Assembly: GCA_029858565.1 (NCBI GenBank)
Contig: JAOUEV010000076.1
Location: 1 to 13,206, forward strand
DNA from: Nitrospirota bacterium
GTDB lineage: Bacteria; Nitrospirota; UBA9217
Length of the DNA stretch: 13,206 nucleotides
Direction: 5' to 3'
A model generated the notes under the pieces. That model worked only from the letters and a program-made list of their open reading frames with translations, did no database searches and had not been told where the DNA came from. A program made the translations under genes and the position numbers. Shown here in pieces: positions 7,484 to 10,364 of the stretch; within the stretch, counting starts at the first letter, position 1; each line of letters begins with the position of its first letter.

Positions 7484-7507
7484 CGAATACAAAATCAAAA
7501 TCTTTTC

Positions 7508-7578
7508 TTGACGGGATTGCAGGATAAACGTCTGATTGATCCGAAGTCAACAACCTGTAGATCCTGGTATCCTGTCAA
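7508..7578. repeat. Long imperfect inverted repeat with internal ATCCTG units of 8-9 nt
   Basis: TTGACGGGATTGCAGGAT (7508-7525) pairs with ATCCTGGTATCCTGTCAA (7561-7578): 16 of 18 positions, including one G-T. Inner stem TTGAT/GTCAA (7536-7550). Confidence 0.75.
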
Positions 7579-7596
7579 AGGTCTTTTGGAGGAAAC

Positions 7597-8550
7597 GTGA
7601 GTCAGCCACAACAGAAGATAGCTACACGAGACGCATACGGCGACGCTTTGGTCGCCCTGGGCAAGAAACGGGACGACGTGGTGGTGCTGGACGCGGACCT
7701 GTCGGGGTCCACGAAGACCTCGAAGTTCGCCAAGGCTTACCCGGACCGGTTCTTCAACATCGGCATCGCCGAACAGGACATGATGGGAACGGCCGCGGGG
7801 CTGGCAATCGGCGGCAAGCTGCCCTTCGCGAGCACCTTCGCGGTCTTCGCCACCGGACGCGCCTGGGAGCAGATCCGGCAGTCCGTCTGCTACCCGAACC
7901 TGAACGTCAAGGTCGTGGCGAGCCACGCCGGCGTCACCGTGGGCGAGGACGGCGGGTCCCACCAGTCCCTGGAGGACGTGGCCGTGATGCGCGTGATCCC
8001 GAACATGACCGTGATCGTGCCGGCGGACGGACCGGAGACCCAGCAGGCCATCGAGGCCGTGGCCGAATATAAAGGCCCCTGCTACGTGCGCGTGGGCAGG
8101 AACAAGGTGCCGACCATCTGCCCGGAGAACTACCGGTTCAAGATCGGCAAGGCCCACGTGTTCCATGAAGGCAAGGACGTCTGCATCATCGCGACCGGCC
8201 TCATGGTGGCGGAGGCGCTCAAGGCGCGCGACCTGCTCAAGGCCGAGGGGATCGACGCCGGGGTGATCAACATGTCCACGATCAAGCCGCTGGACAATGA
8301 CGCGGTCATCGCCGCGGCAAAGCGCTGCGGCGCCATCGTGACCGCGGAAGAGCACTCCATCATCGGCGGTCTGGGCGGCGCGGTGGCCGAGGCGCTGTCC
8401 GAGTCCGCTCCCGCACCGCTGGTGCGCATCGGCACCCGGGACCAGTTCGGCACGTCAGGCGATCCCGACGGCCTGCTGAAGCACTATAAACTTTCGGCGG
8501 AAGACATCCGCGAAGGAGCGAAGGAAGCGGTAAAGAAAAAGAAGCGGTAA
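7597..8550 (+). CDS. Transketolase, C-terminal subunit (pyrimidine-binding and C-terminal domains)
   Basis: GTG start after GGAGG (7588-7592). Motifs TRDAYG, LDADL, NIGIAEQ, GEDGGSHQ, GPCYVR, TIKPLD and TAEEHSIIGGLG. Confidence 0.95.
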   Translation: MSQPQQKIATRDAYGDALVALGKKRDDVVVLDADLSGSTKTSKFAKAYPDRFFNIGIAEQDMMGTAAGLAIGGKLPFASTFAVFATGRAWEQIRQSVCYPNLNVKVVASHAGVTVGEDGGSHQSLEDVAVMRVIPNMTVIVPADGPETQQAIEAVAEYKGPCYVRVGRNKVPTICPENYRFKIGKAHVFHEGKDVCIIATGLMVAEALKARDLLKAEGIDAGVINMSTIKPLDNDAVIAAAKRCGAIVTAEEHSIIGGLGGAVAEALSESAPAPLVRIGTRDQFGTSGDPDGLLKHYKLSAEDIREGAKEAVKKKKR

Positions 8551-8619
8551 GGGGTCAGGGGTAAGGGGTAAGGAAAGATCCACACATCACCCGTTACTCC
8601 TCACGTCCCGCCTCTCATG
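8546..8619. repeat. Heptamer tandem repeat (GGTMAGG)x4 followed by degenerate complementary heptamers
   Basis: GGTAAGG GGTCAGG GGTAAGG GGTAAGG at 8546-8573. Then CATCACC CGTTACT CCTCACG TCCCGCC TCTCATG at 8585-8619; the first three each match the reverse complement CCTTACC at 5 of 7 positions. Confidence 0.7.
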
Positions 8620-8626
8620 GTAATTC

Positions 8627-9340
8627 ATGATCCATCTGTATCGGGTGAACAAATCCTACGAAGGCATCCCGGCGCTGCGGGAGATCACCTTCAGCGTTGA
8701 TAAGGGAGAGTTCGTCTTCCTGACCGGGCCGAGCGGCGCCGGAAAGACCACGCTGCTCAAGATCCTCTTCTGCGCCGAACGGGCCGACGAGGGCCAGATC
8801 ATCATCCAGGGGATGAACACCTTCCGGCTCGGCCCCTCGAGCATTCCCTACCTCCGCCGCAACATGGGCTTCGTGTTCCAGGACTACAAACTGCTTCCCC
8901 ACAAGACCGTTTTCGAGAACATCGCGCTGGCGCTCAAGGTGGTCGGCACGCCCTACGGCGAGATCGAGCGCCGGGCGCTCACGGCGCTCAAGAAAGTGGG
9001 CATGCTGAACAAGGAGCACCTGACCCCGCCCAAGCTCTCGGGCGGCGAGCAGCAGCGCGTGGCGGTGGCCCGTTCCCTGGTGAACGAACCCCAGTTCCTG
9101 CTTGCCGACGAGCCCACGGGCAACCTCGATCCCGCGAGCGGACAGGAGATCTTCAAGCTCTTCAAGGAGATCAACATGAAGGGGACCACGGTCCTGATCG
9201 CGACCCACGACTGGGAGACCGTGCGGACCATGCAGCGCCGCATCGTGGCCATGGAGCGCGGCAGGATCGTGAGCGACTCGCGGGATTCGCAGAAGAAGCC
9301 GTCGCCGGCCGCGGCCGTCCGGCCGGGGACCGCGTCATGA
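8627..9340 (+). CDS. ftsE: Cell division ATP-binding protein FtsE
   Basis: ABC ATPase with Walker A GPSGAGKT, Q-loop VFQDYKLL, signature LSGGEQQRV, Walker B LLADEPTGNLD and ATHD. Overlaps ftsX by ATGA. Confidence 0.95.
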   Translation: MIHLYRVNKSYEGIPALREITFSVDKGEFVFLTGPSGAGKTTLLKILFCAERADEGQIIIQGMNTFRLGPSSIPYLRRNMGFVFQDYKLLPHKTVFENIALALKVVGTPYGEIERRALTALKKVGMLNKEHLTPPKLSGGEQQRVAVARSLVNEPQFLLADEPTGNLDPASGQEIFKLFKEINMKGTTVLIATHDWETVRTMQRRIVAMERGRIVSDSRDSQKKPSPAAAVRPGTAS

Positions 9341-10224
9341 GGGGCTACGGACCGATCTTCTACCTGCTCGAGGCCTACCGGGGCCTGCGTTCCAACAGCC
9401 TGGTCAACGCGCTCGCCCTGGGCACGATCTGCATGGCCATGCTCATTGTCGGCTTCTCCCTCCTGGTGTTCCTGAACCTCACTACCGCTGTGCGCGCCAT
9501 GGGCGACCGTCTCGAGATGTCGGTTTTTCTAAAGGACGGCCTTTCCCCGTCGGACCGGGACCTGTTGCTGACGCGGCTCAAGTCCGAGTCCGGGGTGCGC
9601 AAGGCCGCGCTGGTGACAAAGGACCAGGCGCTGACGCAGCTCATCCGCGACATGAAGGGCCAGGAAAAGCTCTTCCAGTCCCTGGGCGAGAACCCGCTCC
9701 CCGATTCCTACGAACTGACCATCGATCCGGCCTATGCCGGTGACGGGAAGATGGAAGGCATCGCGAAGCGGATCGCGGGATTCTTCGGGGTGGAGGACGT
9801 GTCCTACGGCAAGCAGGGCGCCGAGATGCTCGGCAAGCTTCTGCGGCTGGTGACCTACGGGGGGATGTTCCTCGCGGTCCTGCTCGGCGTGTCCGTGGTG
9901 TTCATCATTTCCAACTCGGTGCGCCTGGCGCTCTATTCGCGGGGCCAGGAGATCGAGCTCATGCAGTGGATCGGCGCCACCCGGTGGTTCGTCACCGCGC
10001 CCTTTCTGGTCGAAGGGATCCTCATCACCACGCTCGGCGCGTCCCTTGCCGTGGGCATCCTCGCAGGATTGTTCCACGCCCTGCCCGGGGACGCCATGCT
10101 CTTCCTTTCCGGTCCCGGCGGATTCCAGTTCCTGCCGACGGGCGTGATCGTGCTCATGATCGGCGGCTGCGGCCTGCTGGGGCTGGCGGGCGGGCTGGTG
10201 TCGGTGAACAAGTTCCTGGATTAG
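9337..10224 (+). CDS. ftsX: Cell division permease FtsX
   Basis: One N-terminal TM segment, periplasmic loop with ENPLPDS, three C-terminal hydrophobic segments, and motif ISNSVRLALYSRGQEIELMQWIGATRWFVTAPFLVEG. Confidence 0.93.
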   Translation: MRGYGPIFYLLEAYRGLRSNSLVNALALGTICMAMLIVGFSLLVFLNLTTAVRAMGDRLEMSVFLKDGLSPSDRDLLLTRLKSESGVRKAALVTKDQALTQLIRDMKGQEKLFQSLGENPLPDSYELTIDPAYAGDGKMEGIAKRIAGFFGVEDVSYGKQGAEMLGKLLRLVTYGGMFLAVLLGVSVVFIISNSVRLALYSRGQEIELMQWIGATRWFVTAPFLVEGILITTLGASLAVGILAGLFHALPGDAMLFLSGPGGFQFLPTGVIVLMIGGCGLLGLAGGLVSVNKFLD

Positions 10225-10235
10225 AACGTTTTCCC

Positions 10236-10339
10236 GACACTGAGGACACTGAAAGTGCGTTGACACAGAAGAGGCGGATGAACTTTCTGAAAAGGCATGA
10301 TCAGGATTTTTCATAGGTTCTTTCAGAGTCCTCAGTGTC
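10236..10339. repeat. 104-bp element with 20-bp terminal inverted repeats made of 9-nt tandem units (MITE/REP-like)
   Basis: GACACTGAGGACACTGAAAG (10236-10255) versus CTTTCAGAGTCCTCAGTGTC (10320-10339): 19 of 20 complementary. A third degenerate unit GACACAGAA lies at 10262-10270. Confidence 0.85.
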
Positions 10340-10364
10340 AAAAAAGTAAGTTTCTACCTCCTCG

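Follow-up and report, generated by a model that had tools for sequence, protein, structure and literature searches.

Tandem-unit palindromes in three spacers of a Nitrospirota tkt-ftsEX operon: probable gene-less forms of a class of palindromic cassette

Results

Three palindromes in one predicted transcription unit

The DNA analyzed here (the window, 13,206 nucleotides) is contig C50 of a Nitrospirota bacterium genome (G000 in our numbering; 3.92 Mb, 144 contigs, 57% G+C). It carries a run of genes that Pfam confirms as tktN, tktC, ftsE, ftsX, and envC, in agreement with the names given in a preliminary description made from the sequence alone, and a ctpA-like S41 peptidase gene closes the run. 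Three spacers of this run, tktN/tktC (S1), tktC/ftsE (S2), and ftsX/envC (S3), each contain an inverted repeat whose arms consist of short tandem units, with the purine-rich arm on the 5' side (Table 1). The preliminary description had placed these structures at or shortly after stop codons, with unit periods of 8–9, 7, and 9 nt, purine-rich units first, and sizes of 70–105 bp. We found that S1, S2, and S3 begin 24, 0, and 12 nt past the stop codon, with periods of 8, 7, and 9 nt and left-arm purine shares of 0.61, 0.83, and 0.70 (counted by hand from the sequence); these points therefore stand, whereas the size has to be corrected to 59–104 nt.

The three palindromes differ in how well their arms are preserved. 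In S1, the 18-nt arms are 83% complementary, the right arm being built of the 8-nt units ATCCTGGT and ATCCTGTC, and GGATTGCAGGAT of the left arm is present seven times in the genome. The arms of S2 are about 70% complementary as read by eye; they are unpaired in a gapless search and paired in the predicted fold (−26.2 kcal/mol, z −2.47). S3 has 20-nt arms that are 95% complementary, with the units GACACTGAG and GACACTGAA, and a loop of 64 nt that holds an inner module and a short motif beside the right arm. This inner module is related to the arm TTTAGCCACGGAAGAGGCGGATA of a cassette at C14:144561 of the same genome, which carries a gene of the GxxExxY family (see below). The loops of S1–S3 span 13–64 nt and contain no open reading frame (ORF). 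Folding alone is weak evidence for these structures: the z scores of S1, S2, and S3 are −2.5, −2.5, and −2.1, with 4, 3, and 6 of 200 shuffled sequences folding equally well. These energies are only modestly better than those of the shuffles; the case rests on the repetition of the units.

Table 1. Positions of the genes, predicted signals, and palindrome parts in the window.
Feature	Position	Strand	Sequence or basis
Promoter-like site ahead of orf160-tktN-tktC-ftsE-ftsX-envC-ctpA	6065..6093	+	TTGAAA-17-TATAAT, 11/12; consensus match only
tktN (transketolase N-terminal subunit)	6650-7483	+	PF00456, E 1.6e-62
S1 left arm	7508..7525		TTGACGGGATTGCAGGAT; inverted repeat search
S1 loop	7526..7560		35 nt, no ORF
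S1 right arm	7561..7578		ATCCTGGTATCCTGTCAA; reverse complement fits TTGACAGGATNNCAGGAT
tktC (transketolase C-terminal subunit)	7597-8550	+	PF02779 + PF02780
S2 left arm	8551..8573		GGGGTCA GGGGTAA GGGGTAA GG; abuts tktC TAA stop
S2 right arm	about 8587..8609		degenerate pyrimidine complement TCACCCGTTACTCCTCACGTCCC
ftsE	8627-9340	+	PF00005
ftsX	9337-10224	+	PF18075 + PF02687
T-rich flank 5' of S3 left arm	10229..10235		TTTTCCC; from sequence
S3 outer left arm	10236..10255		GACACTGAG GACACTGAA AG; inverted repeat search
S3 inner module	10260..10281		TTGACACAGAAGAGGCGGATGA
S3 inner motif beside right arm	10307..10316		TTTTTCATAG
S3 outer right arm	10320..10339		CTTTCAGAGTCCTCAGTGTC
A-run 3' of S3 right arm	10340..10345		AAAAAA; from sequence
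M23 peptidase (envC-like)	10365-11531	+	PF01551
Terminator-like site 3' of ctpA	13071..13099	+	12-pair stem then TTTTATTGTG

All three palindromes lie in one predicted transcription unit, since a promoter-like site precedes the run, the first terminator-like site on the plus strand past the three spacers follows ctpA, and the spacers themselves contain none on either strand. The absence of a U-tract after the stems, as first described, is thus borne out. We ruled out intrinsic terminators as an explanation: there is no GC-rich stem followed by a U-tract, and T-runs precede and A-runs trail the stems. The same layout, with T-runs 5' of the left arm and A-runs 3' of the right arm, is seen in most of the 19 copies of the nonamer (S3-type) element that a motif search located in the genome. 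No Rfam family matches S1–S3 at the gathering score. In metatranscriptome run X1, a fraction of 0.06 of the sampled words was present.

The units recur across the genome

Each of the three unit types is present in multiple copies, so that the repeats are not peculiar to this operon. A 17-mer of S3 occurs in 15 exact copies, and with at most one mismatch it has 34 matches in the genome compared to 0 for the reversed pattern; units of the S2 type (at least two GGGGTNA units) occur at 12 loci. A genome-wide census returned 1228 inverted repeats, 181 of them with periodic arms, which merge into 108 loci, while a block-shuffled genome gave 441 inverted repeats of which 4 had periodic arms. The figure of 108 is a lower bound because the thresholds of the census miss S1–S3 themselves. 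By our own sorting, these loci fall into the unit families CGCAAAG-N (31 loci), ATTGCGG (14), CRCRGAG (12), CACGAAG (11), AGTGCGG (8), AGGATTA (7), the nonamer GACACTGAG (6), and CACGGATNN (3), with 16 loci in other families. When the search was widened to periodic-arm pairs with loops of 261–2500 nt, no new type of enclosed gene emerged among the pairs examined: those without any of the 12 cargo genes described below enclose ordinary host genes (CbiD, pseudopilins, RlmL) that sit between two separate palindromes.

Spacers between co-directional genes hold 74 of the 108 loci, at a density of about 0.17 per kb (convergent spacers, 0.09 per kb; divergent spacers, 0.06 per kb), in line with the enrichment within operons that the preliminary description had proposed to look for. 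This distribution, together with stems that begin at or near a stop codon and lack a terminator tail, would also suit RNA hairpins selected by the host, similar to the repetitive extragenic palindromic (REP) elements of E. coli operons, that act as processing or stabilizing sites and set the message levels of tkt, ftsEX, and envC, with small genes as later squatters. The comparisons among relatives given below bear on this alternative.

Similar arms enclose GxxExxY and four-helix-bundle genes

The genome encodes seven PF13366 (GxxExxY) genes and five PF05635 (four-helix-bundle) genes over the cut-off. Each of the 12 is preceded by a purine-rich sequence and followed by the complement of that sequence, in most cases as tandem units, in agreement with the preliminary description; the gapless flank score reached at least 13 in 10 of the 12, those on C123 and C47 being weak. 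A full cassette opens with the host stop codon and a short T-rich flank, after which 2–4 purine-rich tandem units form the left arm. Next comes a small gene, which encodes either a four-helix-bundle '23S IVS' (intervening sequence) protein or a nuclease-like GxxExxY protein of the PD-(D/E)xK type. A complementary pyrimidine-rich right arm and an A-rich flank follow, and then the ribosome-binding site from which the downstream host gene is read. At two loci (L150 and L127) the start codon of the cargo abuts or falls within the left arm. The cargo reads in the same direction as both neighbors in 38 of 60 loci and in the opposite direction in 1 of 60, as determined by a longest-open-frame heuristic.

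We extended the analysis to the 61 genomes of the family, G000 included, of which 47 encode PF13366 and 44 encode PF05635. Cassettes were scored at one locus per genome plus the copies of G000, with three loci dropped for short flanks, and complementarity was judged against mismatched flank pairs at the 95% level. Of the 32 four-helix-bundle cassettes, 25 had flanks that exceeded this null, as did 33 of the 35 GxxExxY cassettes. Among the former 25, the best arm period was 7 in 24 and 8 in one; among the latter 33, it was 8 in 17, 9 in 11, 10 in three, and another value in two, and never 7. Thus, across 58 cassettes, the unit period follows the type of cargo: 7 nt for four-helix-bundle genes and 8–10 nt for GxxExxY genes. 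In the 13 genomes that lack both families, the arm patterns of S1, S2, and S3 together have 5 matches by our tally.

Two of the three palindromes have counterparts that enclose a gene, at odds with the possibility, raised at the outset, that such repeats never flank a cargo gene in any relative. The exact arms of S3 occur between nuoF and nuoG in a genome of the same genus (G001, contig C5) and in one of another genus (G054, contig C35), where GACACTGAGGACACTGA precedes and TCAGTGTCCTCAGTGTC follows a 128-amino-acid GxxExxY gene. The inner TATGAA and TTTTAATCATAG motifs of these two cassettes recur beside the arms of gene-less copies; specifically, the inner motif TTTTTCATAG of S3 recurs in cargo-less copies and is found 3' of the ORF as TTTTAATCATAG in cargo-bearing cassettes. 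The right arm of S1, read as its reverse complement CTTTGACAGGATACCAGGATCT, equals the arm TTTGACAGGATAACAGGAT that surrounds a GxxExxY gene at two loci (L111 and L123). S2 is tied to four-helix-bundle cassettes only by unit class: its G-rich heptamers resemble those of L150, L135, and L140, and at L150 the heptamers are GGGTCAG, GGGGCAG, and GGGGTCA, with arms that abut the host stop and the cargo start.

The nuoF/nuoG junction carries a GxxExxY cassette in G000 (C14:144561-144887) as well as in G001 and G054 (L164, L165); the cassette of G000 differs in its arms (GCCACGGAAGAGGCGGATA) and encodes a protein of only 55–56% identity.

The arms and the gene are inherited as one unit. On a tree of 35 GxxExxY proteins the arm class changes 9 times, whereas 300 label shuffles gave 19.2 changes on average and never fewer than 15; this test speaks to linkage and not to recognition, because kin share labels. 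Residues D...E-x-K are invariant in 36 of 36 GxxExxY proteins, which indicates that the cargo is under selection and, given this invariance, that the nuclease fold is probably active.

Copy numbers and arm changes among relatives

The numbers of arm copies vary greatly from genome to genome. With at most one mismatch, the nonamer arm is present in 15 of the 61 genomes, with 34 matches in G000, 52 in G001, 9 in G003, and 6 in G002; five genomes of genus g10 have 4–17 matches, and the remaining genomes 0–3. The S1-type arm is present in 33 genomes (4 matches in G000, 29 in G003, 33 in G010, and 29 in G057) and the S2-type arm in 23. Reversed-pattern controls for the three arm types gave 0 matches, except for 1 in G062 and 9 in G074.

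These comparisons speak against hairpins maintained for their RNA structure. Across 16 nonamer elements (one was dropped), both sides matched the consensus at 244 arm positions, 28 changes were one-sided, and none was compensated. Because the changes are one-sided and never compensated, the arm variants look like amplified copies of a master sequence and not like structure-selected hairpins. In the 74 co-directional loci, mismatches on the sense strand comprise 26 G-U and 28 A-C pairs, with G-U in no excess, and these counts give no sign of selection on RNA pairing. Moreover, unit sequences are conserved across genera, although structure alone would leave them free to drift, and copies range from 0 to 52 among relatives.

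Turnover at the orthologous junctions

Members of the family keep the genes from orf160 to ctpA in the same order, which allowed us to compare the same junctions across relatives. In a strict gapless inverted-repeat test against shuffled spacers, 21 of 47 tktN/tktC spacers (17 with heptamer arms), 19 of 50 tktC/ftsE spacers, 6 of 53 ftsX/envC spacers, and 2 of 41 orf160/tktN spacers contained an inverted repeat, and degenerate arrays are visible by eye in the spacers of further relatives beyond these counts. The units at a given junction vary by lineage (ATTGCGG, AGTGCGG, CGAAAT, AAATTAG, GCAGAGGGC, and others), and close relatives have the identical unit at the identical junction. Some junctions are empty, with 9 nt at tktC/ftsE in L075 and 0–30 nt at ftsX/envC in many relatives. 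Conversely, a 145-nt palindrome of CACGAAG octamers splits ftsE and ftsX in G018 (L045/L100), two genes that overlap by 4 nt in most relatives.

High occupancy of two junctions by differing units is what the host-selected hairpins introduced above would predict, and empty junctions are not. Taken together with the one-sided arm changes, the mismatch counts, the conserved unit sequences, and the uneven copy numbers, we consider such hairpins an unlikely explanation of S1–S3.

The composite S3-type element is found only in the nearest clade (the window, L051–L054, and L097), with the inner module at the ftsX/envC junction common to L051, L052, and L054. In the closest metagenome contig (L176, FtsX 89% identical), which ends 90 nt past ftsX, the stretch past the ftsX stop (L176:1062-1151) has the S3 outer arm and, as its interior, a perfect small hairpin, GCAATCCCCCGAC-TCCT-GTCGGGGGATTGC. 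Since the interior is here replaced by a different small hairpin, the loops of these palindromes seem to be targets for further small palindromes.

Further observations were made at the related loci. In L075 and L078, a housekeeping leuB-like gene of 354–355 amino acids occupies the hot-spot junction tktN/tktC, beside CCAAAT-type palindromes. Palindromes of three different genomes (L068, L078, and L086) contain a nested motif about 45 nt long (CCTGCACTCGCG...CACTCGTAAnCGCTGGG), which matches no Rfam family at the gathering score. L068 also has a match to the cyclic di-GMP-I riboswitch on the plus strand (L068:54-130, 38.6 bits, gathering score 35).

Other features of the window

Upstream of the operon, the first 5.5 kb of the window (17-5560, plus strand) encode a protein of 1847 amino acids with OmpA, DUF11, and carboxypeptidase-regulatory-like domains. 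The sole Rfam match of the window is a tRNA at 5933-6016 on the minus strand, which adjoins a plus-strand terminator-like stem (5890-5918).

Discussion

Gene-less members of a cassette class

We propose that S1–S3 probably belong, as members without a gene, to a class of palindromic cassettes found in the spacers of co-transcribed genes. They count as gene-less because their loops hold no ORF and a blastx search detected no remnant of a cargo gene. By their units, S1 and S3 would have GxxExxY-type arms (8–9 nt) and S2 a heptamer arm of the four-helix-bundle type, the latter assigned by class. Each arm family exists in multiple copies, the number of which differs widely among relatives, and the arm type is inherited with the cargo gene. 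The preliminary description had called S1–S3 empty or cargo-deleted versions of such elements. The first part agrees with the GxxExxY gene that the exact S3 arms enclose in G001 and in G054 and with the S1 arm at L111 and L123, whereas the second finds no support in the loops, which contain no ORF remnants.

Several steps of a mechanism can be envisaged. The cassettes would have neither promoter nor terminator of their own and would ride on the host transcript. Pairing of the arms would bring the upstream stop near the downstream start, such that the insert is looped out and tolerated inside an operon, and the layout of T-run, stem, and A-run, reversed relative to a terminator, would avoid termination on either strand. 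The purine-rich left arm could act as the ribosome-binding site of the cargo, and the long stem (15–30 bp) would be a plausible substrate of RNase III, by analogy with the intervening sequences of 23S rRNA. Gene-less copies may spread, or may once have spread, like non-autonomous elements. The cargo protein possibly reads the units, which would account for the link between period and type of cargo.

More tentatively, and with considerable doubt, we speculate that the cargo proteins use the tandem units as their reading frame, with GxxExxY nucleases binding or cutting the arrays in steps of 8–10 nt and four-helix-bundle proteins in steps of 7 nt. Both families would then be mobility or maintenance factors of a new kind of hairpin-borne element that inserts by stop codons in operons and in rRNA, and copies such as S1–S3 would be non-autonomous offspring that fill a sizeable share of operon spacers in many phyla.

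A number of observations weigh against the assignment of S1–S3 to these cassettes. S2 is decayed and is linked to four-helix-bundle cassettes by unit class only. When 129 gene-less palindromes were compared by blastx to 70 cargo proteins, nothing scored under E 0.01, and derivation by gene deletion is therefore not supported. Nor did the junctions supply every allele that had been anticipated: alleles without a repeat and alleles with a repeat only are both present, but a repeat with a GxxExxY or four-helix-bundle gene was found in 0 of 153 related loci, the three junctions included (tblastn, E 1e-8). G000 contains about 17 nonamer elements, yet no cargo gene with nonamer arms, so that this genome, in its present state, does not fit mobilization in trans by such a gene. 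We looked for the hallmarks of miniature inverted-repeat transposable elements and found no transposase with ends of the S1–S3 type, no near-identical pair of empty and filled sites, and, absent such an empty site for comparison, no target-site duplication.

The junctions themselves add to these objections. The high occupancy of tktN/tktC and tktC/ftsE compared to orf160/tktN could reflect host selection for a hairpin. The outer arm and inner module of S3 are common to the nearest clade, and the outer arm is also kept in L176. Since close relatives have units in common, the content of the junctions is partly vertical. Vertical conservation had been named as evidence against selfish elements; empty junctions and lineage-specific units are present as well.

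Implications

PF13366 and PF05635 are large protein families without known function, and unexplained intergenic arrays of heptamers or octamers are on record in at least three phyla. The window and its relatives join these orphan families to the arrays through common arms with and without a gene, the period, co-inheritance, and bursts in copy number. If it is true that the cargo proteins read the units, both orphan families could be assayed directly on the arrays, and selfish DNA would have a new mechanism for residing within essential operons while leaving them intact. In genome annotation, it is advisable not to call such spacers terminators, riboswitches, or regulator sites.

Comparison with known systems

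REP elements and REPINs are short extragenic palindromes mobilized by RAYT (REP-associated tyrosine transposase, Y1) proteins; they occur in many copies and species-specific families, often in operons, and paired inverted REP copies form a larger hairpin. To our knowledge, REPs have no tandem-unit structure, and neither GxxExxY nor four-helix-bundle genes are enclosed by them. G000 has 12 matches to PF01797 (Y1 transposase; on C138, C88, C72, C123, C66, C55, C51, C44, and others). Six of the Y1 gene calls, at 268–325 amino acids, are longer than the 121-position Y1 domain, and several Y1 genes are flanked by an inverted repeat of their own (e.g. GGGTCAGGTC...). We ruled out a REP/RAYT system for S1–S3, as the Y1 flanks have no tandem-unit arms (10 gene calls, 9 of them readable; two matches without a gene call were left out).

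The closest parallel to the gene-bearing cassettes is the 23S rRNA intervening sequence, which likewise has a PF05635 (S23p/four-helix bundle) gene between complementary flanks inside a host transcript; in Coxiella burnetii, RNase III is reported to excise the ORF-bearing element (PMC4990558). The two differ in that the intervening sequence lies in rRNA and carries a gene, whereas S1–S3 lie in mRNA spacers between protein-coding genes and are gene-less. PF13366 is given as a family of unknown function in PMC3424549. We found no published link of PF13366 or PF05635 genes to tandem-repeat arms in a search that did not cover subscription journals, and no formal name in print for inverted tandem-unit cassettes.

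Bare arrays of this kind have been described in two settings. In Geobacter metallireducens, three classes (1–3) of 'global regulator binding sites' consist of opposite-strand pairs at variable distance, each with 3–5 tandem units of 7–9 nt, and one pair lies between proB and proA (PMC2700814). They resemble the elements described here in being intergenic and inverted, and by our reading the class 2 consensus TCTCCGTS[Y] is the complement of units of the CACGGAGA type found here; they differ in belonging to another phylum and, as far as the available text goes, in being read as regulator sites with no link to enclosed genes or mobility. If S1–S3 were likewise arrays bound by a DNA-binding global regulator, the fixed period tied to a protein family would fit protein binding. 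Such a regulator is nevertheless quite improbable, given positions inside operons beside stop codons and not at promoters, dozens of unit families per genome, and the enclosed cargo genes as the only proteins consistently linked to the arrays.

In Xanthomonas and Nostoc, GGGNATC heptamers form arrays that are transcribed and vary in unit number, with 70–75 inverted pairs per Xanthomonas genome, generally not with mobile elements (PMC4692102). As here, these arrays occupy the sense strand close to stop codons, for the most part with aligned ORFs on either side and often as convergent pairs. The available text of that study reads the G-rich heptamers as formers of G-quadruplexes, with no link to a cargo gene. 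Applied to the window, this reading could concern S2 only, which has three GGGG tracts plus GG and thus no fourth full G-tract. We consider it highly improbable, since neither S1 nor S3 is G-rich, nor are most families here, and the common design is inverted pairing and not G content.

Within the available text of these two studies, what is already in print is the bare paired repeats (Geobacter in 2009, Xanthomonas in 2015; PMC2700814, PMC4692102), and the view of an undescribed class of elements holds for the link to genes but not for the repeats as such. What is new here is the rule that the period follows the cargo, the co-inheritance of arms and gene, the turnover at one conserved operon, and exact twins with and without a gene.

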